Shown here: in pieces, positions 19,624 to 42,601 of the stretch
Numbering within the stretch: the first letter of the stretch is position 1
Layout: each line of letters begins with the position of its first letter
Assembly: GCA_963665295.1 (NCBI GenBank)
Contig: OY762209.1
Span: 2,624,001-2,688,000, forward strand
Length of the DNA: 64,000 bases
Direction: 5' to 3'
Source of the DNA: Syntrophorhabdaceae bacterium
GTDB taxonomy: Bacteria > Desulfobacterota > Syntrophorhabdia > Syntrophorhabdales > Syntrophorhabdaceae
Notes under the pieces: generated by a model
What the model was told of the DNA's origin: nothing
The model's database searches: none
The model's input: the letters and a program-made list of their open reading frames with translations, nothing else
Made by a program: the position numbers and the translations under genes

Positions 19624-20844
19624 TCAGGCGGTCTTGCGGTGCAATTGGTCGAGGGTCTCGAAATAGGCTTCGATCCGCGTTCTTATCTGGGTTTCGGAAT
19701 AAAACCGCTGGTCTCCCATATCGCTCTCGAAGACGAGGGCGGGGATGCCCGTCCTTTTAACGAGGATCTCCTTGAGGCTGGGAACGGCAAAGGAAACGGC
19801 CTTGCAGCTTCTGTTCATGAACATTATCATCCCGTTCATGTCGTATCTCTTGAAAAGGTCCATGGCCATGTCCGCCCTGTCTTCGATGGTGGAGTTGGAG
19901 AAACGGTCCACATAGTTCTGGGCGAGGGTTACGAGGGGGTCCTCGTTGAGGTCGAAATCAAGACTCCAGGCATGGACATAGAGAGAGGTGAGGATGACCC
20001 CACCGTAAGAGGCAAGAAGCTTCGCGTGGTCACTGAATTTGAACCACACGGGAAGGTTTTCCCAGTAGAGCCGGTACTTTTCGTTCGGGACGACCCCGAT
20101 GCCTTTCTGCACCTTTTCTTCTATCTCGTCACAGAGGGTCTGGTAATACTCCACGCATTCGGGGGTGCCTCTCCGGTACACAGCGATAGCCATGCCTATG
20201 AGGGCATCGAAGATGCTGATGGGCGACGGTTTGTATTGAGCCATGTCGAGAAATTTCTTGTAGAGTATGCTCGACTGGGCCGAATACTGCATGACTTCCT
20301 GTAGTCTGTCGTAATTGAATTTCTTCTTGGTCACGTGTTCAAGCCAGGCAATAAGCTCCTTGAGTTGGAGGACGCAATACTTGACGATCTCCTGTCTCGC
20401 CTTTTTGTCCATCACGTACTCGGGTGTGTCGAATACGAAGACGGGCAGATCACCCCTACGGGCCAGGACCTGGAACCACTTGGTGAGGGTGAAGCACTGG
20501 GCGTTGCAGGCGAGGAAGATGTCGGGCTCCGGTATGCCTTTGGTGATGGTCTTTCCCGACTCCCTGTAACCGAGATCGGTCCTCGCATAGGCGCAGAGGT
20601 GGCTCGTATACCCGAGGTTTTCGGTGATGGAACATATCTCGGCGCCCTTCTTTGCGGTAAGGTTCGCCACTGCGTGGTTTTCAGGATAGATAGGTACTAT
20701 GTCGTGGGCTACAAAAAGCTCCACAGGAGAGATTGCGGTCGTGTATCCCACGAGTTTTCCGAGTTCATGGGCGCGGAACGCTTCATCCATATATTCATCG
20801 GTGATCTTCTTTGATAAAGCCTTGGAAGACAGTTTTTCGCTCAT
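19624..20844 (-). CDS. 2-hydroxyacyl-CoA dehydratase / benzoyl-CoA reductase subunit (HgdA/BzdO-like)
   Basis: YPENHA, LCAYARTDLG, CFTLTKWFQ, RSCKAVS, ESDMGDQRFYSE..TRIEAYFE. Confidence 0.85.
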   Translation of the reverse strand: MSEKLSSKALSKKITDEYMDEAFRAHELGKLVGYTTAISPVELFVAHDIVPIYPENHAVANLTAKKGAEICSITENLGYTSHLCAYARTDLGYRESGKTITKGIPEPDIFLACNAQCFTLTKWFQVLARRGDLPVFVFDTPEYVMDKKARQEIVKYCVLQLKELIAWLEHVTKKKFNYDRLQEVMQYSAQSSILYKKFLDMAQYKPSPISIFDALIGMAIAVYRRGTPECVEYYQTLCDEIEEKVQKGIGVVPNEKYRLYWENLPVWFKFSDHAKLLASYGGVILTSLYVHAWSLDFDLNEDPLVTLAQNYVDRFSNSTIEDRADMAMDLFKRYDMNGMIMFMNRSCKAVSFAVPSLKEILVKRTGIPALVFESDMGDQRFYSETQIRTRIEAYFETLDQLHRKTA

Positions 20845-21974
20845 AGGGAGCCTCCCTTTAAAGATTCAAAAAACGCCTGAAGCCTTGTGCGTACATGGGA
20901 AAGAGACAGGGTCTGATATTCGGTGGACAGGATGTGCATGGGGATGCCCTCTTTTCTGACCATGCTTCTCAGGTCGGGCATGTCATATTCTTCGGATTCA
21001 CAGAACTCTATGTGAATATAGATGATCGCCTCCGGTTTGTGGAGGTCGTAGAGGGCTTTCAGTTCCTTAAACCCTTTATACACATTATCGTGGATAGGAG
21101 AGTAGAACCCTCTTTTGAAATGCCTTTCCGCAAGGGCGTCGATGGGGTCGGCCCCGTCGGTTATCACCCCCTGGAGGTACCTGGACCCGGTGATAAGGGT
21201 GTCACCTACCACATTGAGCTTGATCTCATCAAAGAGGTCGAATATTTCCGGAGGGTCGCAGGTGATGCCTGCGAGGATGACCCTGGTGTAGCCCTCGCCC
21301 TCTTTCTTTTCAAGGCTATCCCGTATGTTCTTCAGTGTCTGGTTAAACTCCGCCTTGTCGACCTGCATGGAAAGTTTGACGAGAGAGAAAAATTCCTTGT
21401 TGGTAATGGCCGCAGGGTATTTCCTCTTTACTTCGTAGATCTCTTTGAGAAGTTCCTTGTTTTCGTTATGAAGGGCAAAGGATCTCCTCAGGTCCTCATC
21501 GGTCACCGATTTGCCGAACCTGTCCGCCAGGGAAGCGATGACCCGCTCGGTCTCCTCTTTGACCCAGTACTTCGCGCTCGGCCTGTCTACCTGTCGGGGG
21601 GCAAGAAAGCACTCCACATAGGTGTTGGGGAAATTGATCCTCCATATGTCGGAGAGGTGCTGGGTAGTATCACATACCTGGGGCAGAACGAATCCGTCAA
21701 AGAGGTCGCCTTCATAACTCAATGCGAGTTCAAGATTGCTTCTTGCGAGAGAACAGGCGTTGTCGGGCAAAAGGCTCGGGGCTTTCTTCAAGGGTTTATT
21801 GGTACCGAGAAGCGCCACAGGAAGGAAACCGAATGCATAAATAACCTCCTCCGGCACATCTGCGATAGTACTCCCGATGACAGTTTTGCCCGTGCTCTTT
21901 TTCCACTGTCGTATTGATGGATAAGGGTCTTTCGCGTACTCCGTTACTTCCTTAAGACTCAGGTTTTCCCACAT
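20841..21974 (-). CDS. 2-hydroxyacyl-CoA dehydratase / benzoyl-CoA reductase subunit (HgdB/BzdN-like)
   Basis: VPEEVIYAFGFLP, CSLAR, VCDTTQHL, FCESEEYD, TRLQAFFE. Confidence 0.85.
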   Translation of the reverse strand: MWENLSLKEVTEYAKDPYPSIRQWKKSTGKTVIGSTIADVPEEVIYAFGFLPVALLGTNKPLKKAPSLLPDNACSLARSNLELALSYEGDLFDGFVLPQVCDTTQHLSDIWRINFPNTYVECFLAPRQVDRPSAKYWVKEETERVIASLADRFGKSVTDEDLRRSFALHNENKELLKEIYEVKRKYPAAITNKEFFSLVKLSMQVDKAEFNQTLKNIRDSLEKKEGEGYTRVILAGITCDPPEIFDLFDEIKLNVVGDTLITGSRYLQGVITDGADPIDALAERHFKRGFYSPIHDNVYKGFKELKALYDLHKPEAIIYIHIEFCESEEYDMPDLRSMVRKEGIPMHILSTEYQTLSLSHVRTRLQAFFESLKGGSL

Positions 21975-22149
21975 AGGTCCTCCAATAGAATGTATACGAG
22001 AAATACGTCTGGGGCAATTATAAAAAGAAGACTCACTTTTGTCAAGAAAGTGTTTCGAAAGGGTAATAGAAACCGGGAATGGACAAAATTATTGAAATCA
22101 GGGACGAAAAAATAGTATTTTTATAGAAGCAAAGGGTATAGGAGAAATC

Positions 22150-22614
22150 ATGAAAGTCCCTATCACAAGAGAAGGCTACGAGAATCTGAAAAAGGACCAC
22201 GCGTTCCTGCTTAACGACAAGAGGCCGAAGATACTGAGGGCCATTGAAGAGGCGAGGGGCCACGGCGACCTCTCCGAGAATGCCGAGTACGACGCGGCGA
22301 GAGAGGAGTACCAGTTCCTCCAGAAAAAGGTGGCGGAAATCGAGGAAATGATAAGAAATTCCGAGATAGTCGATGTCACGCAGGGAGACGGCGAGATGGT
22401 GGCGTTCGGCTGCAGCGTATCGTTGAAAAATCTCGACACCGATGAGGAAGTGGTGTACCAGGTTGTGGGTCCCTACGAATCGGACATACAGAAAGGCTTG
22501 ATATCCTTGACCTCCCCGCTGGGAAGGGCACTCATAGGAAAGTCCGTGGGAGACGAGGTAAACTTCTCCGCGCCGGGCGGGAAAAGGACCTACGAAGTCG
22601 TCAAAATAGTCTGA
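22150..22614 (+). CDS. greA: Transcription elongation factor GreA
   Basis: ARGHGDLSENAEYDAA, ISLTSPLGRALIGK. Confidence 0.96.
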   Translation: MKVPITREGYENLKKDHAFLLNDKRPKILRAIEEARGHGDLSENAEYDAAREEYQFLQKKVAEIEEMIRNSEIVDVTQGDGEMVAFGCSVSLKNLDTDEEVVYQVVGPYESDIQKGLISLTSPLGRALIGKSVGDEVNFSAPGGKRTYEVVKIV

Positions 22615-23037
22615 AATCCTCTTTCCCGGTATTCTTTTGCCCATACACCGCAACCGCTCGAACGGGGCAAGGGTCCGCGCCGCGACATGGCCGGGCCTTA
22701 TGAAGACGCCGGGATGACGTAAGGGATCAAACCTTTTCCACGGTCCCGGTAAAGTGAAGACCCCGGCGTTATGTTTTAAGGAAAGGGTTACCGGAACCGC
22801 ACCGCCCGTTACTTGTATGTAAGGAAGCACGGTAACAGGAACCGGACACACAACGGTGTGTGAGAAAAAACAGTGGCGTTCATATCTGAACGCTTTTTTT
22901 ATTTTTCACTGAAGGACTGCGGCGTCTTTAATCCTTAAGAAGGATGAGGGGCGCTTTTTTGTTTGAACAGGGAAAGCCCGCAGCTTCCGCGCAGGAGGGA
23001 GGTTCCCCTATCCTGGAATCAGACGAGGAGGAATGCC

Positions 23038-23268
23038 TTGAGTGACGAAGCAAAAGAGGTGATACCTGAGGAGTGGTACGTGAGGACGGAGTCCAAACTG
23101 GTCTGTCTTCGTTGCCGTAAAACCTTCAAAAGGGAATATGAGCCGAAGAAGACCCGACGAAGGGGGAAGGCCCACGGCACCAAAACCCTGCTTACGTTAT
23201 GGGCCTGGTACAACTTTAGAAAGCACCTCCTGAGGTGCTGGAATCGACCGGGCGACGACCAGGCGTGA
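23038..23268 (+). CDS. Small basic hypothetical protein, possible C2HC zinc finger
   Basis: SD GAGGAGG before TTG 23038; CLRC...HLLRC. Confidence 0.55.
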   Translation: MSDEAKEVIPEEWYVRTESKLVCLRCRKTFKREYEPKKTRRRGKAHGTKTLLTLWAWYNFRKHLLRCWNRPGDDQA

Positions 23269-23344
23269 TCACAGGCCGGCCGACAGAGCGGGCAGAATCT
23301 CCCGCCCCGGTAAGAGAGACATTACGTGACAAGGAAATCCCCGG

Positions 23345-24415
23345 TCACTCACTTAACCTCGCGTGGCCGAGAAAGGTTATGAACTTTCGGAGCAGTTCCT
23401 CGTCAAAGCAGCGTCGCATGCCCAGATCGCGGTTCTCCCGCTTGGGCGATACCCCCGGCTTGTCGTCCAGGGGAATCCCCACCATGATCTGGACCGCCTT
23501 CGCGGGAGGCAGCGGGTTTTTGTAAGGCCGCCGGGACGTCATGGCGTCGAAGACGTCGATGATCCTGAGCACCCTGGCCAGGGGGCTTATGCTGAGCCCT
23601 TCCAGGCCCAGGGGGTAGCCTCCCCCGTTAAAATCCTCGTGGTGATGCAAAACTGCTTTCTTCACGAAATCAGGAATCTCCGTGTCGAGAAGCATGGACA
23701 CGCTGTTGATGGGATGGCGCTTGATTGCGTCCCACTCGGAGGAGGTGAGGGGGTCGATCTTATTGAGTATCTCCTGGGAAACATACGCTTTTCCGATGTC
23801 GTGCAGGAGCGCCCCCACGCCGCATTGCTTCAGTAATTCCTTCTTGCGGGTCTCGTCGAAGCCCGCGTAATCTTTATGAACCTGCTCCAGAACGGAGGAA
23901 TTGTCTTTCAGAAAGGCCACGGTAAACCAAAGGACCTTGGTGGCGTGCGTATAGGTCTGGTAGTCGTGACCGATCATTTTCGCCAGGGCCTGGAGGGAAC
24001 GGGCCTCTGTGATGAAGTAGAGGGCGTTCTTGACCATGGAGTCGGTCCTCTCGAGGGCCTCCTGACTCATTACTCCCAGTCCCAGGGCATTTTCGAAGGC
24101 GTCTTTCACCACGTTGAGGGATACCCTGCTGAATATCTCCGCCTTCTGATCGTCCGACGGCCCCTGGTTTTGGAGGATCGTTCCCAGGTGATCCTCAAGG
24201 TATTCTTCGTACTTGAACTCCTCGTCGAGGGTAACGAAGACCTCCTTCATCCTGCTGGCCGAGAGTCGCTGGATCTGGTCCTCCGTGACCTCGTTGCCTT
24301 CGCGCGCCCAAAGCACATGCTGGCCCAGTGGGGAAAGTATGTAGATTTTGAATTTCGGCATGCTCCCCGGTATAATCGCTCCCGGGGGGATGGTGATGAA
24401 CTTTTCCTTATCCAT
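23345..24415 (-). CDS. HD-GYP phosphodiesterase
   Basis: LLHDIGK, HHEDFNGGGYPLGL, DVFDAMTSRRPYK. Confidence 0.92.
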   Translation of the reverse strand: MDKEKFITIPPGAIIPGSMPKFKIYILSPLGQHVLWAREGNEVTEDQIQRLSASRMKEVFVTLDEEFKYEEYLEDHLGTILQNQGPSDDQKAEIFSRVSLNVVKDAFENALGLGVMSQEALERTDSMVKNALYFITEARSLQALAKMIGHDYQTYTHATKVLWFTVAFLKDNSSVLEQVHKDYAGFDETRKKELLKQCGVGALLHDIGKAYVSQEILNKIDPLTSSEWDAIKRHPINSVSMLLDTEIPDFVKKAVLHHHEDFNGGGYPLGLEGLSISPLARVLRIIDVFDAMTSRRPYKNPLPPAKAVQIMVGIPLDDKPGVSPKRENRDLGMRRCFDEELLRKFITFLGHARLSE

Positions 24416-24722
24416 GAAACGGACTCCCTGTTGTTTGATTCGAGCAGGCGCTTATTCTCTTGCGTTGAAAGAAAAGCCTCCTATTGCCCGTCTCCCGCCG
24501 TTTTTCCCCGGTCACGTCGCCGGGACCGGGCCGGGAGTCAATTGTTTTCGCATACTTGAGCAAACCGCTAATCAATGTACAATAAATATATCATTATTTA
24601 CCAAAGGTGCAATATAAATGTCACTGTCCGGCCCTTGCGCGGTCCGTCCCCTTCCCGGCGGCCCGGCACCGGGGTTATGGGGTCCGGAAGGGACCGTCAT
24701 TCGGGGTCAACCGGCCTACCGG

Positions 24723-24751
24723 TTGACAAACGCCTGTCTTTTCTTAATAAT
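24723..24751 (+). promoter_or_regulatory. Sigma-70 promoter for alaA
   Basis: TTGACA at 24723, then an AT-rich -10 region (TAATAAT/TAATAT) at about canonical spacing. Confidence 0.55.
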
Positions 24752-24795
24752 ATGGTATACAGGCGCGGGACGCCTTAAAAAGCGATAGGAGCGGA

Positions 24796-26022
24796 ATGAA
24801 CGGTATGCGTGAGATTCGAAAGTCGAACAAGATGGACAACATATGTTATGAAATTAGGGGGCCCCTGCTCAAGGCGGCGAAACGCCTCGAAGAGGAAGGG
24901 TATACTATTATCAAGCTGAATAGCGGGAATCCTCCCGCTTTCGGGATCAACGCACCGGATGAGATAATCCATGACGTGACCCTCAATATCAGGGCCGCCC
25001 AGGCCTATGGTGATTCGAAAGGTCTTTTTTCGGCCCGCAAGACGATTATGCAGCAGTGCCAGTTGAGGGGTATCGAGGGCGTGGAGATTGAGGACATTTA
25101 CGTGGGCAACGGCGTGTCCGAAATGATCATGATGGCTATGCAGGGACTTCTCAACAACGGGGATGAAATGCTTGTCCCGTCCCCCGATTATCCACTCTGG
25201 ACCGCCGCGGTCACCCTTTCCGGAGGGACCGCCGTGCATTACATCTGCGATGAATCATCGGAGTGGATGCCTGACATCGAGGACATGGAATCGAAGGTTA
25301 CCCTGAAGACGAGGGGCATCGTGCTCATCAACCCCAATAACCCCACGGGTGCGGTCTACACAAAAGAAGTGCTCCTGAAGATAGTCGAAATGGCGGAAAA
25401 GCACGATCTTATTATATTCGCCGACGAAATATACGACCAGATCCTTTATGACGGCGCGGAGCATATCCCTGTCGCCGCCCTCTCAAAGGATGTCTTCTTC
25501 GTGACTTTCAACGGGCTGTCGAAGTCCCACCGCATTCCCGGCATGAGGGCGGGCTGGATGATCGTGAGCGGCAGGAAATCCCTTGCGAAAGACTACACCA
25601 ATGAAGGCCTGGATACCCTGTCGAATATGAGGATGTGCGGCAACATGGTGGGCCAGCTTGCCATCCAGACGGCCCTGGGAGGTTATCAGAGCCTCAGGCG
25701 GTTGATAAGCCCCGGCGGCAGGCTCTATGAGCAGCGGAGAGCCGCCTACGAGTGTTTCAACTCGATACCGGGCATTACCTGTGTAAAGCCCATGGGCGCC
25801 CTCTATCTTTTTCCGAAGATCGATGCCGAAAGGTATGGTATTCGTGACGACCAGCAGTTCCTTCTCGACTTCCTCATGGAGAAGAAGGTGCTTATGGTGC
25901 AGGGGACGGGGTTTAACTGGCACGCCCCGGACCACTTCCGGGTCGTCTTCCTCCCTTCCGTCGAAGAAATTCAGGCCGTGGCGGAACGGATGGCCGATTT
26001 CCTGAAGGACTACCACCAGTAA
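24796..26022 (+). CDS. alaA: PLP-dependent alanine aminotransferase
   Basis: CYEIRGP, GNGVSE, INPNNPTG, DEIYD, NGLSKSHR, VQGTGFNW. Confidence 0.92.
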   Translation: MNGMREIRKSNKMDNICYEIRGPLLKAAKRLEEEGYTIIKLNSGNPPAFGINAPDEIIHDVTLNIRAAQAYGDSKGLFSARKTIMQQCQLRGIEGVEIEDIYVGNGVSEMIMMAMQGLLNNGDEMLVPSPDYPLWTAAVTLSGGTAVHYICDESSEWMPDIEDMESKVTLKTRGIVLINPNNPTGAVYTKEVLLKIVEMAEKHDLIIFADEIYDQILYDGAEHIPVAALSKDVFFVTFNGLSKSHRIPGMRAGWMIVSGRKSLAKDYTNEGLDTLSNMRMCGNMVGQLAIQTALGGYQSLRRLISPGGRLYEQRRAAYECFNSIPGITCVKPMGALYLFPKIDAERYGIRDDQQFLLDFLMEKKVLMVQGTGFNWHAPDHFRVVFLPSVEEIQAVAERMADFLKDYHQ

Positions 26023-26043
26023 CCGGGTCGCTGCCGGTGGAGG

Positions 26044-27699
26044 TCAGTAGCGATAAGGCCGTGGGTGATGGTTCCACGCGTCCATGAAACTCATGAGCCC
26101 GAGGTCCCTCATCCTCCGGTGGAGATTGCCCTGCGTTCCTCTATCCCCGCCCACAGCTCGCTCGATGCGCGCCAATCGGTACAGGATATAGCGGTCCAAG
26201 TCCCTGAACTGCTCTTTTATTCCGTCGCTCGCCGCATCATTGAGAAAAGACGCGGGCCAGCCTATCCCCGTCGCATGGGTGAGGACCTTGTTGTCCGCCG
26301 TCATCCGGTCGGGCGGAAACCCGAGTAAGGTGCTGATCCGCCATATCTTCTCCGCGAGGGGCATGATACAGGGGTCGGTGTGGACTCCTGCCGGGGCCAT
26401 GTGACGGGCGTGACATTTCCTTGGGCCGTCCTGCACGGCCTCAATGCGGGTGAGGAACCTGACCCTTCGCCTGATCTTTTCGATGGTCGCGTCCCTTATG
26501 CATATTATGGGCTGGTTATCCTCGTTGATCCTGTAATGGTAGGCACAGAAATCAAACCCGTGTTCGGGGCCCGCCTCGTTTTCCGCCACGGGATAGAGGC
26601 CCGCGATAGTCGCCTTGCCCTCGTTTACCCGCTGACCCAGTTCCGTAAGGACAAAGCGTTTCATGTCTTCCCGCACCTCTTCGGCATAAGCCGGATCGTT
26701 CAGGAAAAGGACCACATCGTCCCCGAAGCGGCAAAAGGGTATGCGCTTGACCTTTATGTAAGTGTCCAACTGGTGGAGGTAGATGTTGGTGAAGAGAGGC
26801 GTGAGGCCCGTGCCCATCCCTATGCCCGTGCCCGGGGTCATGAGGACCTCATCGACCCTTGAAAAATACCTCCCCATGAGCCGCTTCAGAAAATCGCAAT
26901 CCTCATCGCTCCATCCGGCCTTCTGCGCCCGATCGAGGATCAGCGCCACGAGTCGCTCCTGGGGGACGGTTTCGTTGAAGGATTTTACATCGAGGCGAAG
27001 GACGACCCGATAGCCTTTATTGAGCCCCGATATGACCCGCCGCACTGTCTCCTTAGTCCCCCTGTTGGCGATATAGGCGCAGGACTCGCGGAAGAAGTAC
27101 TTCGTGGGAAACAGTTTCCCGAAAAGAGCGGTCAATGCCCCCACCACGAGAGTATCGGGGAAGGTGGGTTTCAGCATGATCCTGTACCGGGACCTCTCCC
27201 GGGGCGTGAGGCTGCGGTACTCGCTTTGGGGCAGGGTGTTCTTTCTGGGACGCATCCCTTCCTTGTCCGGCTCCTGGTACTTGAGAAGGGCCGTTACCCT
27301 CATGCGTGAAAATTCATAGCTGTCCTTCCGCATAAGCCTGCAGAGCCTGTTGATCGCGTTTTCCGCCGCCGGTGAAATGGTAAGGCGGATCGGGTCGGTC
27401 GGCTTTTCAGGGCGGGTCTTCTTTTTCACCGCAAGCCATTTGGGGAGAGGGGCCTTCCTTGGAAAAGGCTGATGGATCCGAGACCTGAGGGCTACGGCCT
27501 CTTCGCCTTTGAAAAGATGGCCCAGGGGGTCCCGCACCAGTATGTGGGACAGGAGCAGCATGGCCAGGGATTTGGACTTCCGCCTGATCACCTGTTGATA
27601 TGTCTTCTCGTCCGACAGGATATCTTTCAGCATAGGGTTAAGAGCCGGCATGGGTTTTCGAGGCTCGTTCCGTTTCGGTGGCCCTTTTAGGGGGACCAT
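26044..27699 (-). CDS. Group II intron-like reverse transcriptase with thumb/X domain and no endonuclease (start uncertain: 27699 or one of two in-frame ATGs 48-66 nt downstream)
   Basis: RT0 INRLCRLMRKDSY; RT2 KPTFPDTLV; RT2a SCAYIANRG; RT3 LDVKSFNETV; RT4 GIGMGTGLTPLFTNIYLHQLD; RT5 RFGDD; RT6 VNEGKATI; RT7 GFDFCAY; X domain GWPASF...LDRYILYRL. Confidence 0.9.
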   Translation of the reverse strand: MVPLKGPPKRNEPRKPMPALNPMLKDILSDEKTYQQVIRRKSKSLAMLLLSHILVRDPLGHLFKGEEAVALRSRIHQPFPRKAPLPKWLAVKKKTRPEKPTDPIRLTISPAAENAINRLCRLMRKDSYEFSRMRVTALLKYQEPDKEGMRPRKNTLPQSEYRSLTPRERSRYRIMLKPTFPDTLVVGALTALFGKLFPTKYFFRESCAYIANRGTKETVRRVISGLNKGYRVVLRLDVKSFNETVPQERLVALILDRAQKAGWSDEDCDFLKRLMGRYFSRVDEVLMTPGTGIGMGTGLTPLFTNIYLHQLDTYIKVKRIPFCRFGDDVVLFLNDPAYAEEVREDMKRFVLTELGQRVNEGKATIAGLYPVAENEAGPEHGFDFCAYHYRINEDNQPIICIRDATIEKIRRRVRFLTRIEAVQDGPRKCHARHMAPAGVHTDPCIMPLAEKIWRISTLLGFPPDRMTADNKVLTHATGIGWPASFLNDAASDGIKEQFRDLDRYILYRLARIERAVGGDRGTQGNLHRRMRDLGLMSFMDAWNHHPRPYRY

Positions 27700-28110
27700 A
27701 GATTAAGATCAGTACTCGAAATTGCCCATACCGCCTGCTCTAATTCTAGCAGCACCGCGGCCTCCCGTAAAGGGGTTAATGCAGGATTCCACTCTTTGCC
27801 CCGCTCGCGCCCGACACTATCCGGATTCCCGGTGGTGAGGCCGGGTAGGGACGAACCGGCCCTTCGGCAAGAACCGGAAGTTGACCATTCATTGGACTCT
27901 TCAGGGGAGGCAAGACATGGTGGGATCGTGGATCGGCTCCCTTTGTCGGTTCCTCGATACATCAGGCTGTCACCACCCCGGCACGCAAATCAATCGGTCT
28001 GCCGTACTCCCGGCGAGAACTACCGTTCATCGGTAGATTGCCGGATTGACCCTGTCAACCCTGTCTCATGCACTGTAACATGCCGATTCGGTCTGCCCCA
28101 TGGCAGGCAC
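27700..28110 (-). ncRNA. Candidate structured RNA upstream of the RT
   Basis: At least five hairpins and one long-range stem (ggtggtga 27831-27838 with tcaccacc 27970-27977); no credible ORF. Confidence 0.45.
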
Positions 28111-28359
28111 TTTGCCTTGCCCACAATAACATTCTACGCATGATTATCATGAGCTTCTGTGTTATCGTGGCAGGGAGCGAGGAGCAACACTGGGAAGATA
28201 TGAGACGTCCTTCTCACCAAACGTTTGCTGGACCTTATTCCCGGTACGAAATCCTCCAAAGTATGTCTTCGTCCTTCTCCGGGAATATGCGGTATCCGTA
28301 CTTCGCCGTCGGCTGGGCGCAGTTGGTTCCGGACGTGACCGGTATTTCGATCCGCGCTA

Positions 28360-30774
28360 TCAATATGCCTGGTTCACAGTGCTTGCCTGTTTCATCCCTC
28401 CCTTTGTGAGGGTTACCTTGATGCCTCCCGACCTGCTTTTCTTGGTGGTATTGGCTTTTACGGTATAACCCACCGACCCACTCCCTGTACCGTGACTCTC
28501 GGAGGTGATTTTGATCCACGAAGCTCCCTGGGACTGTGCGGTCCATCGGCAGTCGCCGGGCGTGACATCCACTGTGAGCGTGCCGGTTCCGCCGTCCTTG
28601 GCAAAAGATGCGGTCGAGGGAGCGAGGGAGGTGACTGCGCATGCCGTTCCCGCCTGGGTTATGGGGAACGAGAGGGGGCCTACGGAGACCCTTCCGGTCC
28701 TTTTGGACGAGGTCGGGTTATTCAACACCCCAATCTGCACTGAACCCTTCTTCCCGTCGAATGTGTAATCGGAATAAGCGATCCAATCTGCGCTTGCTGA
28801 TATGCTCGGCGCGGGACAGTCCGTCCCCGATGCTGTGATTGTTACCGGAAGGTTTCCTTTCGTACCGGTGAATTCCGCGCTCGCAGGCGAGATGACATAG
28901 GTACAGGTATTGTTTGATTGGGCCATTGCGGAGCCCGCTGCCACGAAAGTTCCTTTACCATATGTAACCGAGGAAAACCCGACCATGGACGGAAATGATG
29001 CTTGGTGATAAGGCAACTCTCTTTTCGTCCAGCCAGCCCCGTTTGACGAGGTGAGTAGGAGCGGACGGTCCGAATCTATCCCCACTGCCACGAAGACGTT
29101 GTTGCCATAAGTGACCTGAGATATAATTGCATCGGATCTTGGCATTTTGTGAGCCGACCACGTGATTCCGTCGGGAGACGTAAAGGCATAGGGCACCGAT
29201 CTTTCTCCCACAAGTGCCACGGCAGTGTAAATGCCATTCCCGTATGCGACTGTCGCAAAGTCGATTCCTTCGATAACCGGCGATATCCGAGTCCATGTTG
29301 CTCCATCGAACGAGGTAAGAATGGCGCACCGGTCTCCCACGGCCACGAAGGCACCGTTCCCGTAAACGACGCCGGTGAGATACTTCTCTGACGACTGTGC
29401 CGTCCACGTCGCGCCGTCGCGTGACGTGATGATGACGCCGTTTCCCACCCCTACAAAGGTTCCGTTACCGTACGTGACGGCATCGAGACATGCAGTAGTA
29501 TCGACCAGACTTCTTTTTTGCCACGTTACTCCATCGGGAGAGGTCGCCGTAACGCCGTACCATCCCACCCCCACAAAAGTCCCGTTGCCGTACGTGAGAG
29601 CACGGATGCCGGAAATGCCGGGCGAAATACTTTCCCACGTCACGCCGTCCGGGGAGATCGAGGTAGCGCCCGAAGGTCCCACCCCTACAAAGGTTCCATT
29701 ACCGTACGCGACCGCTTCTATCCCCACAACGGTGTACGAGCGTTCCGTCCAAGTGAATCCGTCAGGGGAGGTATAAATGCAGTGCCGCCATGGGACGTTG
29801 AGCGCGGATCGGGGTAGTGAGCCCTCCTCCCCCACTGCGACAAAAGTATTGTTGCCGTACGCGACGGCGCAAGGATAGCTATGGAAGCCTGATACGACTG
29901 CCTCAAAGGACCAGGTAATACCGTCTGCCGAGGTAATGATCCCATGGTCATGCCATGTTCCCCATTGCGCAATGAAGAGGTCATTGCAGAAGATAATATT
30001 GGACACAGACAGAGGCAGCAGGTTGGAACCTAATGATACCGTGTTCCATGAAACTCCGTCTTTCGACGTAAATACATTGGGACCATACGCAGTCACGAAA
30101 AGGCCATTTCCGTACGCGACGGTCCCAACCATCTTTCCCGTTGACTGATTTGTCCACACAGCGCCGTCAAAGGAAGTGTAGATATCACGATCGCCGGCAG
30201 CCAGAAAGATGCCGTTTCCGTAGACAAGACACTTGATGTCCGAGAGGGCGGCCGCTCTCAGTGTCCATTTTATGCCGTCAGAGGATGTAAGGCAGGAACT
30301 TCCCATTGCTACAAACGTCTCATTGCCAAAGGCAACCGCTTTGAAGTATACACGGTTGTTTGACCACCGTTTCTTCCACTTGATACCGTCCGGGGACGTA
30401 TAGATGGCATTTCCTACTGCGACGAACACATTGCGAGCGAAAATCACTGCCCGAATATTTGCACCTTTTTCCGCAGAGCTCTGGGTCCATGTGATGCCAT
30501 CACGGGAGGTGAGGACCGTATTATACACTCCCATTGCCACGAAGGTGCCGTTCCCGTATGCGATGGTACAAAGGGCATTAGGTTGTGGCAACGGACTCCT
30601 CCATTGCCAGTCATCAAGGGGAGCCGTCGAGGTCGTACGGGCAGAAAGGGCCATCTCCGCTGAAAAGGCTACACCGTGATTTGCCACCACAGAGAGCAAG
30701 AGCAAAGCGCCTAGAACAAACCATATCTCGCGCGTTTTAACAAAGGAAAATGTCCTTACCAAACCATGGTGCAT
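28360..30774 (-). CDS. Secreted beta-propeller (Asp-box repeat) protein with C-terminal BACON-like Ig domains
   Basis: Signal peptide; about 13 repeats of YGNGxFVxVG...TSxDGxTW; C-terminal WI...V..N....RTG/RSG pattern twice. Confidence 0.85.
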   Translation of the reverse strand: MHHGLVRTFSFVKTREIWFVLGALLLLSVVANHGVAFSAEMALSARTTSTAPLDDWQWRSPLPQPNALCTIAYGNGTFVAMGVYNTVLTSRDGITWTQSSAEKGANIRAVIFARNVFVAVGNAIYTSPDGIKWKKRWSNNRVYFKAVAFGNETFVAMGSSCLTSSDGIKWTLRAAALSDIKCLVYGNGIFLAAGDRDIYTSFDGAVWTNQSTGKMVGTVAYGNGLFVTAYGPNVFTSKDGVSWNTVSLGSNLLPLSVSNIIFCNDLFIAQWGTWHDHGIITSADGITWSFEAVVSGFHSYPCAVAYGNNTFVAVGEEGSLPRSALNVPWRHCIYTSPDGFTWTERSYTVVGIEAVAYGNGTFVGVGPSGATSISPDGVTWESISPGISGIRALTYGNGTFVGVGWYGVTATSPDGVTWQKRSLVDTTACLDAVTYGNGTFVGVGNGVIITSRDGATWTAQSSEKYLTGVVYGNGAFVAVGDRCAILTSFDGATWTRISPVIEGIDFATVAYGNGIYTAVALVGERSVPYAFTSPDGITWSAHKMPRSDAIISQVTYGNNVFVAVGIDSDRPLLLTSSNGAGWTKRELPYHQASFPSMVGFSSVTYGKGTFVAAGSAMAQSNNTCTYVISPASAEFTGTKGNLPVTITASGTDCPAPSISASADWIAYSDYTFDGKKGSVQIGVLNNPTSSKRTGRVSVGPLSFPITQAGTACAVTSLAPSTASFAKDGGTGTLTVDVTPGDCRWTAQSQGASWIKITSESHGTGSGSVGYTVKANTTKKSRSGGIKVTLTKGGMKQASTVNQAY

Positions 30775-31150
30775 GGAATCCCCCTAAATGCTAGGCTCGT
30801 GTCGGTATTACTCTTACAAAAGCTGACCAAAGAAGAGCATTTTCAATAATACTATCAAAGCCAACAAGTACAAATCAAACTAATTTTGACGGCCCCATGT
30901 CTTTCTGTTGAAGGTCACTGTATGACCGGTAAGAAGACGGGCCATGACGGTGTGTGGGGGGCATCAGGCGGAGAGGGGCGTGTCAAGGGTTATTTACTTA
31001 TTTACGGTCGTCCCCCAGGTGTCCCTATTTACGGTCGTAACAGTTTAGTCCCCCCGGAACTTTTTCCAGCAAAATATTATGTCTAATTTCCACAAAACCT
31101 TTGATTTCCTTGTTCCATGATGGTATTATAATAGAAGTACTACTACTCAT

Positions 31151-31441
31151 GTGGAGGGTTCAATGGAACAAATCGATCTTCTTAAAAGGCAGCGGGAGAG
31201 ACTTAAGGAGGACATTGTCGCACAGCTGGATTTCTTCCTTATCGGGACGGTGGCCAAGTCCCCTTCCATGACGGGCCACTCCCTTACCACAAAAGTGAAG
31301 GGGAAGACCGTAACCGTGTATGTGAGAAAACAGATTGCCGAGAAGGCGAAGGAGATGACGAAGCGGTACAAGATGATGTGGCTTCTCATACAGAAGCTTT
31401 CTAAGATCAACTGGGAGATACTGAAACAGGAGAGCGAGTGA
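31151..31441 (+). CDS. IS accessory protein (DUF6788-like)
   Basis: GTV...LTTKVKGKTVTVYV; overlaps the transposase start (GTGA). Confidence 0.7.
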   Translation: MEGSMEQIDLLKRQRERLKEDIVAQLDFFLIGTVAKSPSMTGHSLTTKVKGKTVTVYVRKQIAEKAKEMTKRYKMMWLLIQKLSKINWEILKQESE

Positions 31442-32958
31442 AGAGGGTCTATCCTCCATACGGCTACGATTGTCTTTATAAGGACAATTGCCCCCATCTT
31501 AACTTTCTCTCCACCCTATGGGTCTTTGGAGAATATGAGCGGGCCCATGAGGTGTACGAAGAGCATCTTCGGATTATCGATGTGTTCCGGGACAGGCTGG
31601 ATGACACCATGAAGCGTATCCGTCTTTTAGAGAAGGAGAACGAGGAACTGAAGGCGAAGAATACCGCATTGCATCGAAGACAGTTCAAGGCGAACAAAAA
31701 ACCGGAGCATGCGGTCTCTTTGGCAGGGAGGAAGCGCGGCGCTCCGGTCGGACACCCCGGGTGGTTCAGGCCCGAGCCTGCCCGCGTGGATGCGACGGTT
31801 CACGTGCCCGCTCCCGATCGATGCCCCCATTGCGGGTCAGGCCCTCTTGTCCCCGGGGAAGGGATCCGTGAGCATGTGCAGGAAGACATTGTCATAAGAC
31901 CCCGCACGGTGGTGAGACGGTATGTGCATAAGGAAGCATACTGTAGCCGTTGCGGGCGTTCTGTGGTGAAGGCGGCTCCCGACGAACTTCCGAATGCTCC
32001 TATCGGACCGGTTACGAAATCCGTTGCCTTATACTTGCGGTACAGGATAGGTATGAGCTATCGAAAGGTAGAGGAAGTTATGAGGGAGATCTTCGGCCTT
32101 GCCTTTGTCCCTGCTTCGGCAGTGGGGTTTGACAGGGCTGCGGCGAAAAGGGGGACACCTCTTTATGAAGACCTCCGGGAGAAGATACGCGCCTCGGAAA
32201 TAGTTCATGCCGATGAGACATCATGGAGGAACGACGGGACCGGTCATTACGCGTGGTATGCGGGAAACGCCGATCTTGCCCTCTTCCATATCGACCGGCA
32301 CCGCTCGACAGACGTGGCTCAACATCTTCTCGGGGACAACTTCGACGGGGTGCTCATCACCGACCGCTATGCCGCGTATAACGGAGTTCATGCGAGAGAA
32401 AGGCAGACATGCCTTGCCCACCTTATCACCAGGGCCAGGGAGTTGACCCGGGAGCTCGTCCTCATGGAGACAAGAGATACAAAAGCGGAGGCGTTCTGTG
32501 ATGCGGTCGGGAGGCTCTTCTCGGATGCCTGCGCCGCGGGCGGGGATCTTCTTAAGGGAAAGAGAGAGTGGGGAGATGCTCCCCGCATCGAGAAGCAATT
32601 GAGAGCAACCCTCGGGAAGATATGTGCAAAGCCCCTCAAGTATAAGCCGGCGGAAGGGCTCCGTACCTTCCTTACCGGCAAAGACCGGAAGTTTCTCTTC
32701 ACGTTCCTTCGCTATCCGGGAGTACCACCTACCAACAACCAGGCAGAACAGTCGATCCGCTTCCTGGTGATCATGAGGAAGCTCATGTTCGGTACGCGGT
32801 CGGCAACGGGACTGAAGACCCACAGTATCCTGCCGAGTCTCATCATTACTTCCATGAGGCAAGGGAACGATCCACGGAAGTTCCTGGAGACGCTTCTGGT
32901 GTCGGATACCATGACGGCACAGGCGGCACTGTATCGCAATGGGGCGAGGGCTCCGTGA
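31438..32958 (+). CDS. tnpC: IS66 DDE transposase TnpC
   Basis: Coiled coil, GAPVGHPG, CPHCG...CSRCG, HADETSW, TDRYAAY, CLAHL, PTNNQAEQSIR. Confidence 0.93.
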   Translation: MKRVYPPYGYDCLYKDNCPHLNFLSTLWVFGEYERAHEVYEEHLRIIDVFRDRLDDTMKRIRLLEKENEELKAKNTALHRRQFKANKKPEHAVSLAGRKRGAPVGHPGWFRPEPARVDATVHVPAPDRCPHCGSGPLVPGEGIREHVQEDIVIRPRTVVRRYVHKEAYCSRCGRSVVKAAPDELPNAPIGPVTKSVALYLRYRIGMSYRKVEEVMREIFGLAFVPASAVGFDRAAAKRGTPLYEDLREKIRASEIVHADETSWRNDGTGHYAWYAGNADLALFHIDRHRSTDVAQHLLGDNFDGVLITDRYAAYNGVHARERQTCLAHLITRARELTRELVLMETRDTKAEAFCDAVGRLFSDACAAGGDLLKGKREWGDAPRIEKQLRATLGKICAKPLKYKPAEGLRTFLTGKDRKFLFTFLRYPGVPPTNNQAEQSIRFLVIMRKLMFGTRSATGLKTHSILPSLIITSMRQGNDPRKFLETLLVSDTMTAQAALYRNGARAP

Positions 32959-33098
32959 GGGGGACTAAACTGTTACTTACGGTCGTAACAGTTTAGTCCT
33001 CTCGGAACTTTTTCCAGCAAAATATTATGTCTAATTTGCACAACACCTTTGATTCCCTTGTTCCATGATGGTATTATAATAGAAGTACTACTACTCAT

Positions 33099-33389
33099 GT
33101 GGAGGGTTCAATGGAACAAATCGATCTTCTTAAAAGGCAGCGGGAGAGACTTAAGGAGGACATTGTCGCACAGCTGGATTTCTTCCTTATCGGGACGGTG
33201 GCCAAGTCCCCTTCCATGACGGGCCACTCCCTTACCACAAAAGTGAAGGGGAAGACCGTAACCGTGTATGTGAGAAAACAGATTGCCGAGAAGGCGAAGG
33301 AGATGACGAAGCGGTACAAGATGATGTGGCTTCTCATACAGAAGCTTTCTAAGATCAACTGGGAGATACTGAAACAGGAGAGCGAGTGA
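33099..33389 (+). CDS. IS accessory protein (DUF6788-like)
   Basis: Identical protein to 31151-31441. Confidence 0.7.
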   Translation: MEGSMEQIDLLKRQRERLKEDIVAQLDFFLIGTVAKSPSMTGHSLTTKVKGKTVTVYVRKQIAEKAKEMTKRYKMMWLLIQKLSKINWEILKQESE

Positions 33390-34906
33390 AGAGGGTCTAT
33401 CCTCCATACGGCTACGATTGTCTTTATAAGGACAATTGCCCCCATCTTAACTTTCTCTCCACCCTATGGGTCTTTGGAGAATATGAGCGGGCCCATGAGG
33501 TGTACGAAGAGCATCTTCGGATTATCGATGTGTTCCGGGACAGGCTGGATGACACCATGAAGCGTATCCGTCTTTTAGAGAAGGAGAACGAGGAACTGAA
33601 GGCGAAGAATACCGCATTGCATCGAAGACAGTTCAAGGCGAACAAAAAACCGGAGCATGCGGTCTCTTTGGCAGGGAGGAAGCGCGGCGCTCCGGTCGGA
33701 CACCCCGGGTGGTTCAGGCCCGAGCCTGCCCGCGTGGATGCGACGGTTCACGTGCCCGCTCCCGATCGATGCCCCCATTGCGGGTCAGGCCCTCTTGTCC
33801 CCGGGGAAGGGATCCGTGAGCATGTGCAGGAAGACATTGTCATAAGACCCCGCACGGTGGTGAGACGGTATGTGCATAAGGAAGCATACTGTAGCCGTTG
33901 CGGGCGTTCTGTGGTGAAGGCGGCTCCCGACGAACTTCCGAATGCTCCTATCGGACCGGTTACGAAATCCGTTGCCTTATACTTGCGGTACAGGATAGGT
34001 ATGAGCTATCGAAAGGTAGAGGAAGTTATGAGGGAGATCTTCGGCCTTGCCTTTGTCCCTGCTTCGGCAGTGGGGTTTGACAGGGCTGCGGCGAAAAGGG
34101 GGGCGCCTCTTTATGAAGACCTCCGGGAGAAGATACGCGCCTCGGAAATAGTTCATGCCGATGAGACATCATGGAGGAACGACGGGACCGGTCATTACGC
34201 GTGGTATGCGGGAAACGCCGATCTTGCCCTCTTCCATATCGACCGGCACCGCTCGACAGACGTGGCTCAACATCTTCTCGGGGACAACTTCGACGGGGTG
34301 CTCATCACCGACCGCTATGCCGCGTATAACGGAGTTCATGCGAGAGAAAGGCAGACATGCCTTGCCCACCTTATCACCAGGGCCAGGGAGTTGACCCGGG
34401 AGCTCGTCCTCATGGAGACAAGAGATACAAAAGCGGAGGCGTTCTGTGATGCGGTCGGGAGGCTCTTCTCGGATGCCTGCGCCGCGGGCGGGGATCTTCT
34501 TAAGGGAAAGAGAGAGTGGGGAGATGCTCCCCGCATCGAGAAGCAATTGAGAGCAACCCTCGGGAAGATATGTGCAAAGCCCCTCAAGTATAAGCCGGCG
34601 GAAGGGCTCCGTACCTTCCTTACCGGCAAAGACCGGAAGTTTCTCTTCACGTTCCTTCGCTATCCGGGAGTACCACCTACCAACAACCAGGCAGAACAGT
34701 CGATCCGCTTCCTGGTGATCATGAGGAAGCTCATGTTCGGTACGCGGTCGGCAACGGGACTGAAGACCCACAGTATCCTGCCGAGTCTCATCATTACTTC
34801 CATGAGGCAAGGGAACGATCCACGGAAGTTCCTGGAGACGCTCCTGGTGTCGGATACCATGACGGCACAGGCGGCACTGTATCGCAATGGGGCGAGGGCT
34901 CCGTGA
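33386..34906 (+). CDS. tnpC: IS66 DDE transposase TnpC
   Basis: One visible amino-acid difference from copy 1 (RGAPL vs RGTPL). Confidence 0.93.
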   Translation: MKRVYPPYGYDCLYKDNCPHLNFLSTLWVFGEYERAHEVYEEHLRIIDVFRDRLDDTMKRIRLLEKENEELKAKNTALHRRQFKANKKPEHAVSLAGRKRGAPVGHPGWFRPEPARVDATVHVPAPDRCPHCGSGPLVPGEGIREHVQEDIVIRPRTVVRRYVHKEAYCSRCGRSVVKAAPDELPNAPIGPVTKSVALYLRYRIGMSYRKVEEVMREIFGLAFVPASAVGFDRAAAKRGAPLYEDLREKIRASEIVHADETSWRNDGTGHYAWYAGNADLALFHIDRHRSTDVAQHLLGDNFDGVLITDRYAAYNGVHARERQTCLAHLITRARELTRELVLMETRDTKAEAFCDAVGRLFSDACAAGGDLLKGKREWGDAPRIEKQLRATLGKICAKPLKYKPAEGLRTFLTGKDRKFLFTFLRYPGVPPTNNQAEQSIRFLVIMRKLMFGTRSATGLKTHSILPSLIITSMRQGNDPRKFLETLLVSDTMTAQAALYRNGARAP

Positions 34907-34924
34907 GGGGGACTAAACTGTTAC

Positions 34925-36049: not shown

Positions 36050-42601
<6,552 letters not shown>

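Follow-up and report, generated by a model that had tools for sequence, protein, structure and literature searches.

A group II-like reverse transcriptase and a conserved upstream RNA suggest a previously undescribed RNA-and-enzyme system

A 64,000-nucleotide stretch of a Syntrophorhabdaceae genome (contig OY762209.1, positions 2,624,001 to 2,688,000; the window, whose numbering is used here unless stated otherwise) carries on its minus strand a gene for a reverse transcriptase (RT) of 529 amino acids (aa), directly preceded by a structured RNA of 90 nt. Together they suggest a previously undescribed RNA-and-enzyme system: a compact two-part module consisting of a promoter, a structured RNA of 84-94 nt and the 529-aa RT, in which we consider it about evenly balanced whether the RNA templates DNA synthesis. 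Judged by comparison of sequences, the RT is intact and under purifying selection, with every catalytic residue kept as well as the Phe that opens the FFD block, and the RNA is conserved, covarying, unique in its genome and strictly linked to the RT, with no partner protein gene. A first-pass annotation of this DNA had described a stand-alone RT without intron RNA. The absence of intron RNA held up, but the picture of a lone protein did not, because a covarying RNA of 84-94 nt lies upstream in 9/9 loci.

A structured RNA upstream of the reverse transcriptase gene

The flanks of the gene were compared between the window and eight further loci, five from species-representative genomes and three from metagenomes. 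Nucleotide homology between the loci extends from about 100 nt upstream of a conserved MLKE start down to the stop codon, where it ends. The RNA (27645..27734, minus strand, as are all parts of the module described below) is found directly upstream of the RT in all nine loci and folds into a closing stem P1 of 10 bp, an invariant 2-nt CA bulge, a stem P2 of 8 bp, a large internal loop and an apical hairpin, P3. Both strands of the internal loop are conserved, the 5′ side being U-rich (U[UG]A[GU]C[CU]U[UA]AUC) and the 3′ side A/C-rich, while P3 is GC-rich with a variable loop. Directly 3′ of P3 an A/C-rich single strand is present in 9/9 RNAs. Folded as single sequences, the RNAs gave minimum free energies of -30 to -43 kcal/mol.

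Covariation supports this fold. RNAalifold recovers P1 and P2, with 6/15 pairs compensatory, and paired cells make up 91.3% of the MAFFT alignment and 93.2% of a model-guided alignment as compared to 21-57% in slid controls. Eight of 23 pairs are changed on both sides, against 2.4-2.6 in shuffles, and 0/500 shuffles reach eight, a figure that is not a probability because the nine sequences represent only about 5-6 lineages. The RNA was also more conserved than the gene that follows it: its identity exceeded the nucleotide identity of the coding sequence in 28/28 locus pairs, locus L005 having been omitted from this comparison because its RT is cut by a contig end. A second helix, GUGUUUAG/CUGAAC, pairs in only 4-5 of the nine loci as judged by eye, and was kept out of the RNA model.

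A covariance model of the RNA found one copy in its own genome (E 1.2e-12). Among 96 genomes of the class it found the RNA in exactly the six that have the RT, in one copy each and beside the RT; these positives are largely the model's own source sequences, and it is the absence from the other 90 genomes that is informative. Sense-strand scores were 76-102 bits, those of the antisense strand 28-36 bits. No Rfam family matches the RNA, and in a viral collection an IUPAC pattern of it gave one chance match, inside an open reading frame (ORF) and without a covariance-model match. A leader peptide was considered and rejected, since the ATG/GTG frame inside the RNA varies in frame and length across loci and has no Shine-Dalgarno sequence. 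An endless ORF of the DRT2 kind was likewise rejected, as RNA lengths are not conserved modulo 3.

The signals around the RNA are shared as well. A promoter scan placed a sigma-70-like promoter at 27743..27771 (TTTACG-17 nt-TAGAAT, with TG before the -10 box). It is the sole promoter-like site in 25900-28400; shuffles average 1.0 such sites, and the scan alone is therefore weak evidence. A -10-like hexamer is found at the same place before the RNA in 9/9 loci, and the predicted transcription start coincides with the 5′ end of P1 or lies no more than about 2 nt from it. P1 is separated from the start codon by a pyrimidine-rich linker, CTCTTAACCCT (27634..27644), with no Shine-Dalgarno sequence; across the 9/9 loci the linkers measure 6-17 nt and are without purine runs. 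GGAG-like sites precede four neighbouring genes and none precedes the RT. A U-run follows P1 only in L003 and L007 (2/9 loci), indicating that read-through into the ORF is the rule. Therefore, the conserved unit is promoter, RNA, linker and RT.

The enzyme and its place among reverse transcriptases

The 551-codon open frame of the first-pass annotation (26044..27699, minus strand) is present, and its start was later revised. The RT begins at the ATG at 27633 (MLKD), 66 nt later than first called and the sole universally conserved start, so that the gene spans 26044..27633 (529 aa plus stop). Upstream ATGs are not conserved: ACG stands in their place in three loci and in-frame stops occur in others. 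The stretch upstream of 27633 is therefore noncoding, and the first 22 'residues' of the long ORF are a translation of the conserved structured RNA. At the other end, 21 bp separate the RT stop from that of a convergent aminotransferase gene (24796..26022), as had been reported under the name alaA. The base composition of the RT gene carries no foreign signature.

The gene is real and codes for an RT, as first proposed. The protein reaches 31.0 bits with Pfam RVT_1 (cut-off 29.6), a profile of its family matches the GsI-IIC group II intron RT at E 2.2e-24, and an AlphaFold2 model built from 50 sequences (mean pLDDT 90.9, pTM 0.89; pLDDT 68 in the last block) aligns with known RT folds. A basic N-terminal region is followed by fingers/palm, a thumb and a C-terminal helical region ending in RPYRY. 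The annotation was right that the N-terminus is basic (30 Lys plus Arg versus 14 Asp plus Glu in residues 1-135) but put the extension at about 110 aa, whereas in the HMMER alignment the part preceding RT1 exceeds that of GsI-IIC by about 56 aa. An insertion of about 25-30 aa claimed for the fingers likewise shrank to an 8-residue gap once the protein was aligned to GsI-IIC.

A word-indexed search of 5.8 billion proteins yielded 19 homologues at 38-57% identity, of which 18 span 512-546 aa. When 1.84 billion cluster representatives were searched exhaustively with HMMER, 1788 matched at E ≤1e-3 and just nine below 1e-30, indicating that the family is very small. In the alignment of the 20 family members the three catalytic Asp are invariant, as had been claimed of the single sequence, and so are the F-N of FNETV, the P-G-x-G-I-G-M-G block and R-x-G-D-D; position 325, the first of F/YGDD, is Phe or Tyr. 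HMMER pairs the FNE, GIGMG and FGDD blocks with FFD, PQG and YADD of group II RTs, in agreement with the substitutions first listed. In the RT3 block (26971..26991) a catalytic Asp sits at 26989-26991; FNE (26971-26979) comes next, where group II RTs have FFD, and retains the first Phe. In the RT4 block GIGMG (26812..26826), Met occupies the Gln position of the QGxxxSP motif of group II, retroviral and non-LTR RTs. The RT5 catalytic block (26716..26727) is FGDD here; the sister group described below and the family's most distant members have YGDD. One further substitution, FCA for FLG, proved to be a misalignment: LGFSF of GsI-IIC pairs with HGFDF, and the Gly of RT7 is therefore kept.

The annotation had allowed that these changes might be unique to one decaying copy. 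Instead, the 19 homologues keep the motifs, and the ratio of nonsynonymous to synonymous substitution (dN/dS) was 0.145, 0.108 and 0.097 in the three locus pairs with unsaturated synonymous distance (dS <1.1); ratios this low rule out a decaying relic. On this alignment evidence, FNETV, GIGMG and F/YGDD are conserved family characters under purifying selection and not products of decay. The position of HIV Q151, or I181 of the RT of diversity-generating retroelements (DGRs; bRT), contacts the incoming deoxynucleotide (PMC7826257). Met at this position, together with Gly in YxDD, suggests changed nucleotide handling. The altered fidelity or substrate proposed in the annotation would follow from this loss of Gln to a hydrophobic residue, which DGR RTs have in common with the family. 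The first Phe of FFD, which we take to be the steric-gate equivalent, is kept, and would argue for use of deoxynucleotides. The C-terminal tail RPYRY (26047..26061) ends in a Tyr that, by analogy only, is a candidate protein-priming residue; R[PS][YH]RY closes 15/20 family sequences, one more has one extra residue and four differ.

Several lines of comparison bear on the class of the enzyme. E-value scans with Rfam covered 20000-34000 and 27600-27800 and detected no group II intron RNA in either. The genome's true intron served as a positive control: RF00029 (domain V/VI) was detected at 685591-685660 with 45.8 bits, adjoining the sole other RVT_1 gene of the genome. That gene (686034-686660, outside the window) encodes a true group II intron protein, with 131 bits for RVT_1. 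Our RT reaches 83.1 bits with TIGR04416, the model for group II RT/maturases, against a cut-off of 300 and scores of mostly about 260-420 for the true group II RTs sampled, and no GIIM domain was detected in it with Pfam at E up to 1. The NCBIfam models for defence-associated RTs (DRTs) all fall below their cut-offs (Drt3a 57/200, Drt2 17.5/390, Drt5 10.8/550, Drt4 10.4/450), as does the retron RT model NF038233 (St85; 25.9 bits versus 235). With the models of PADLOC v2, whose rows have no curated cut-off, the top match is a generic group II/CRISPR-type RT model at 80.7 bits; among class-specific models UG26 (63 bits) leads, ahead of Drt3a (62), UG4 (55), UG17 (44) and Drt9 (42), and the retron RT model stays at or below 25.8 bits.

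The family profile matches G2L4 chains at E 6e-7 to 9e-7, as compared to 2e-24 for GsI-IIC. In fold comparison two structures tie for the closest match, the DGR bRT (Z 26.8, root-mean-square deviation 2.5 over 318 residues) and the GsI-IIC RT (Z 26.0, 2.8 over 372 residues), followed by G2L4 (Z 23.6), DRT9 (20.6, with the most residues aligned, 403), DRT2 (18.6) and retron RTs (about 17-19). A search of the ESM Atlas returned generic RT clusters only, and no longer fused forms of the RT were found in the search, which is weak evidence. In the literature, as covered mainly by titles and abstracts, we found no description of an F/YGDD group II-like clade or of the RNA. Taken by its sequence, the enzyme is an intron-less RT descended from group II intron enzymes and claimed by no curated model, in line with the annotation's domesticated RT of an unclassified lineage.

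Two assignments were rejected on specific grounds. For a DGR, a template repeat and variable repeat pair would be needed, and 27634-28400 (767 bp) has no second copy in the 5.5-Mb genome (best other match E 0.43), which means that there is no such pair; in addition, no avd was found among the neighbours, and the motif MGTGLTP ends in TP and not in SQ. A CRISPR-associated RT was rejected because the window and the eight loci have no cas neighbours and because the RT stands apart from nine RT-Cas1/CRISPR RTs in a tree.

This tree, a quick maximum-likelihood reconstruction (LG+G4, SH-aLRT, 74 rows), also defined the closest relatives of the family. Its rows comprise 15 family members, 15 sister-group proteins, three intermediates, the nine RT-Cas1/CRISPR RTs and 32 group II RTs. 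The tree drew on part of the 150 listed matches and omits the near-duplicate family members P0004, P0007, P0009, P0013 and P0015 as well as the fragment P0020. SH-aLRT support was 100 for the family, 96 for the sister group and 99 for both together. Placement in an RT tree, which had been proposed as a check, thus gave no nesting among the sampled group II and CRISPR RTs and instead a clade of its own outside all 32 and nine of them. The nearest neighbours of this clade are three proteins that keep YADD and QG. The sister group, the next tier of matches (15 cluster representatives of 449-573 aa, one named from a Limisphaerales metagenome-assembled genome), shares FNETV, a hydrophobic residue for the Gln of QG, [YF]GDD and a C-terminal LRxxGLRTFxDxxNR block. 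It includes P0029-P0039, P0047, P0021 and P0169-P0173. The 11 sister-group proteins scanned had no NCBIfam match at E 1e-30 and no strong match to a PADLOC class, and in the viral collection a sister-group profile met weak RTs only, at 20-26% identity. By these sequence-based criteria the family is a new, very rare group II-derived RT clade.

Distribution and genomic surroundings

The RT is found in 6/96 genomes of the class, single-copy in all six, and in 2/401 sampled genomes of the phylum (G000, G040). It is absent from three other genomes of the genus (93-100% complete). These three keep the aminotransferase gene, but past the stop of that gene their sequence does not match the window, so that no empty site can be defined. 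At L004:6034-7622 (G077) the RT is read as two overlapping ORFs and at L008:1869-2930 as a 353-aa truncation, with the upstream RNA intact in both.

Gene neighbourhood, another check that had been proposed, revealed no constant companion: the neighbours vary at every locus, and so do their Pfam families. In the window these families are GreA, HD domain, aminotransferase, a BACON/DUF6242 protein, IS66 and RHS. A search with defence models gave 0 matches among nine window neighbours, and no cas1, avd, retron effector or abi gene lies nearby in the window, just as the first reading had it. Among the neighbours of L001-L008, 41/44 ORFs are without a defence-model match, the three exceptions being a mad3/AriA-like ATPase (L007), a second RT fragment (L006) and a GAF-cyclase (L003). 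No SLATT or other effector gene was found among the neighbours of the window and the other loci. L003 and L007, close relatives with 88% protein identity, have their downstream genes in common and differ in the upstream gene. In L007 a 561-aa ATPase (L007:2108-3793; PADLOC mad3 with 179 bits, and AriA) lies directly upstream of the RNA-RT module, and an unrelated gene is in its place in L003.

The roughly 590 bp (27772-28359) that separate the RT promoter from the stop of the BACON/DUF6242 gene contain no convincing gene; a 115-aa plus-strand ORF there has no Pfam or PADLOC match, and the stretch is not conserved in the other loci. Two tandem IS66-family elements of about 1.95 kb each occupy 31026-34921, 3.3 kb upstream of the module, and are 98% identical over the 300 nt compared; each copy carries a DUF6788-like small ORF and a 506-aa transposase. 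A 1310-aa RHS-repeat protein (36050-39982) and a pair of genes of the 2-hydroxyglutaryl-CoA dehydratase D-component family, HGD-D (19624-21974), are ordinary genes unrelated to the RT.

Readings of the module and comparison with known systems

How might such a module work? We propose that the RNA and the RT mRNA would be made as one transcript from the promoter at 27743-27771, that the RT would bind the RNA through P1/P2 and the conserved internal loop, and that it would use the RNA as scaffold and template in the way that retrons, DRT2, DRT9, DRT10 and DRT3a use RNAs encoded in cis. A candidate template is the A/C-rich strand that immediately follows the stable P3 hairpin on its 3′ side, and a candidate protein primer is the conserved C-terminal Tyr, each as a lead only. 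Met for Gln and Gly for Ala at the deoxynucleotide pocket probably alter nucleotide handling. A more specific version of this proposal, which we think rather unlikely, is a telomerase-like or DRT10-like repeat-adding ribonucleoprotein (RNP) in which an A/C-rich template with a 5-nt period, bounded by P3 and primed from the C-terminal Tyr, would direct synthesis of short tandem-repeat DNA. If that version were true, RNA-templated repeat synthesis would have arisen independently beyond the UG lineage, and the RNA would be the smallest natural partner known.

Several observations weigh against the templating proposal. Binding of the RNA by the RT, processing of the RNA and synthesis of cDNA are steps that we infer. 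The RNA leads the RT mRNA at its 5′ end and has no conserved terminator after it, an arrangement that would suit a regulatory leader just as well. RNA-templated repeat synthesis is known from the UG lineage, to which the RT does not belong by class-model scores, and the tree was built without DRT/UG, G2L4, DGR and retron references, classes that were judged by scores from hidden Markov models. The A-B-A′ repeat in the A/C-rich loop is not beyond chance (shuffle p 0.05-0.49 per sequence), the lengths of the RNA make a DRT2-like endless ORF unlikely, and the R[PS][YH]RY tail is found in 0/15 sister-group sequences. The covariation sample consists of nine RNAs from about 5-6 lineages, and related sequences can inflate shuffle tests. 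Finally, the RT is interrupted in 2/9 loci (L004, L008), whether truly or by assembly error.

In group II introns, the RT binds to subdomain IVa, at its own start codon. The RNA might accordingly be an autoregulatory leader and nothing else, the RT binding its own 5′ untranslated region to limit translation and acting elsewhere, for example in DNA repair of the G2L4 kind; we regard this as possible, though not as the likelier explanation. The RNA does stand first in the RT mRNA, 6-17 nt ahead of the ATG, the U-tract after P1 is limited to 2/9 loci, the enzyme descends from group II RTs, and G2L4 is, as far as the abstracts tell, a group II-like RT that works without a dedicated RNA. Such a leader would explain the position of the RNA and the missing Shine-Dalgarno sequence equally well. 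However, the strands of the internal loop are conserved well beyond what a simple operator hairpin would need, conservation of the RNA exceeds that of the ORF in all of the 28 pairs, and the start codon and linker lie outside the structure, so that occlusion is not evident. The similarity to G2L4 is moreover weak (E 6e-7 against 2e-24 for GsI-IIC), and its YIDD is absent.

The remaining explanations account for less of the data. A minimal selfish retroelement, in which the RT would copy and reinsert its own RNA-tagged mRNA with the 5′ RNA as a recognition handle, would suit the patchy spread (6/96 genomes of the class, 0/3 other genomes of the genus, 2/401 of the phylum), the flanks that differ even between the close relatives L003 and L007 and the insertion sequences nearby in the window. 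We nevertheless hold it to be improbable, because the RT is single-copy in all six genomes, no endonuclease or integrase domain was found by Pfam, no terminal repeats were noticed, and retrotransposition would leave behind a promoter that lies outside the transcript, whereas the -10 box is conserved. It is very improbable that the palindrome acts as DNA, as an operator or a recombination site. A long imperfect inverted repeat does lie next to the promoter, and the five C-A cells of the sense strand would be G-U on the other strand, but compensatory changes keep single-strand pairing, G-U cells outnumber C-A cells by nine to five on the sense strand, the loops are asymmetric and conserved, and the covariance model favours the sense strand (76-102 versus 28-36 bits). 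Least credible of all is a decaying group II intron protein or a mutagenic RT of DGR type, which the results contradict. The nearest solved structures are indeed bRT (Z 26.8) and the GsI-IIC RT (Z 26.0), and a hydrophobic residue at the Gln position recalls the DGR motif [I/V/L]GxxxSQ (PMC7826257). Against this stand the dN/dS of 0.10-0.15 with motifs invariant across the family, the lack of intron RNA beside the RT in a genome whose true intron was detected, and, for a DGR, the single copy of 27634-28400, the failure to find avd and a motif ending in TP rather than SQ.

The distinction between templating and regulation matters for what the module would mean. Retrons, DRT2, DRT9, DRT10 and DRT3 are bacterial RTs paired with RNAs that each revealed a new way of writing DNA, and several became tools. 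They belong to the retron and UG lineages, whereas the present RT comes from a distinct clade that is group II-like. Its nucleotide pocket is remodelled, with Met in place of Gln, Gly in place of Ala and Asn-Glu in place of Phe-Asp; its RNA measures only about 90 nt, and it has no effector gene. If the RNA is a template, the module would be a compact, possibly programmable DNA-writing RNP and a missing link between intron RTs that bind a leader and domesticated RTs that are templated by RNA. If it serves as an operator, we would be looking at the intron's autoregulatory site in a descendant that lives free of the intron.

Among known systems, the group II RT/maturase (GsI-IIC, PDB 6AR1/6AR3) is closest by sequence and tied closest by fold, with the same order of fingers, palm and thumb and the same triad of catalytic Asp. 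Unlike it, our RT has no intron RNA, carries FNE/GMG/FGDD, is about 110 residues longer and is preceded by a dedicated RNA of unrelated shape. G2L4 is likewise a free-standing, intron-less, group II-like RT with a changed YxDD, and resembles ours in fold. It is, however, defined by YIDD (PMC4244168) where ours has F/YGDD, its sequence similarity is weak, and the abstracts on it mention no dedicated RNA. The DGR bRT, the top fold match, also has a hydrophobic residue for the Gln of QG. Unlike in a DGR, the RNA described here is conserved between species, which would not be expected of a template repeat.

Retrons provide a closer parallel in layout, with a structured RNA that has a closing terminal stem and lies directly upstream of the RT under one promoter. 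Our RT is longer (529 aa as compared to about 310-370 aa for the retron RT chains matched), and its RNA is predicted to be blunt-ended, is much smaller and has no evident conserved context for a branching G. The class 2 UG/DRT systems (DRT2/UG2, DRT9/UG28, DRT10/UG17 and DRT3a) likewise combine an RT with a conserved structured RNA in cis. The non-coding RNA and RT of DRT2 share one upstream promoter (PMC11100668), class 2 UG RTs work with RNAs that are encoded in cis and carry a template loop (PMC13174585, PMC12632851), and DRT10 primes on its C-terminal Ser or Tyr (PMC12632851, PMC13174585). By PADLOC and NCBIfam scores our RT is not a member of this class, and its RNA is shorter (84-94 nt versus 137 nt in DRT10 and 281 nt in DRT2) and abuts the start codon. 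Even so, as DRT10 is described in those sources, its template is a single-stranded loop directly after a stable stem-loop, a layout that recurs in the RNA described here, and its C-terminal Ser/Tyr primer has a possible counterpart in the conserved C-terminal Tyr of our RT.

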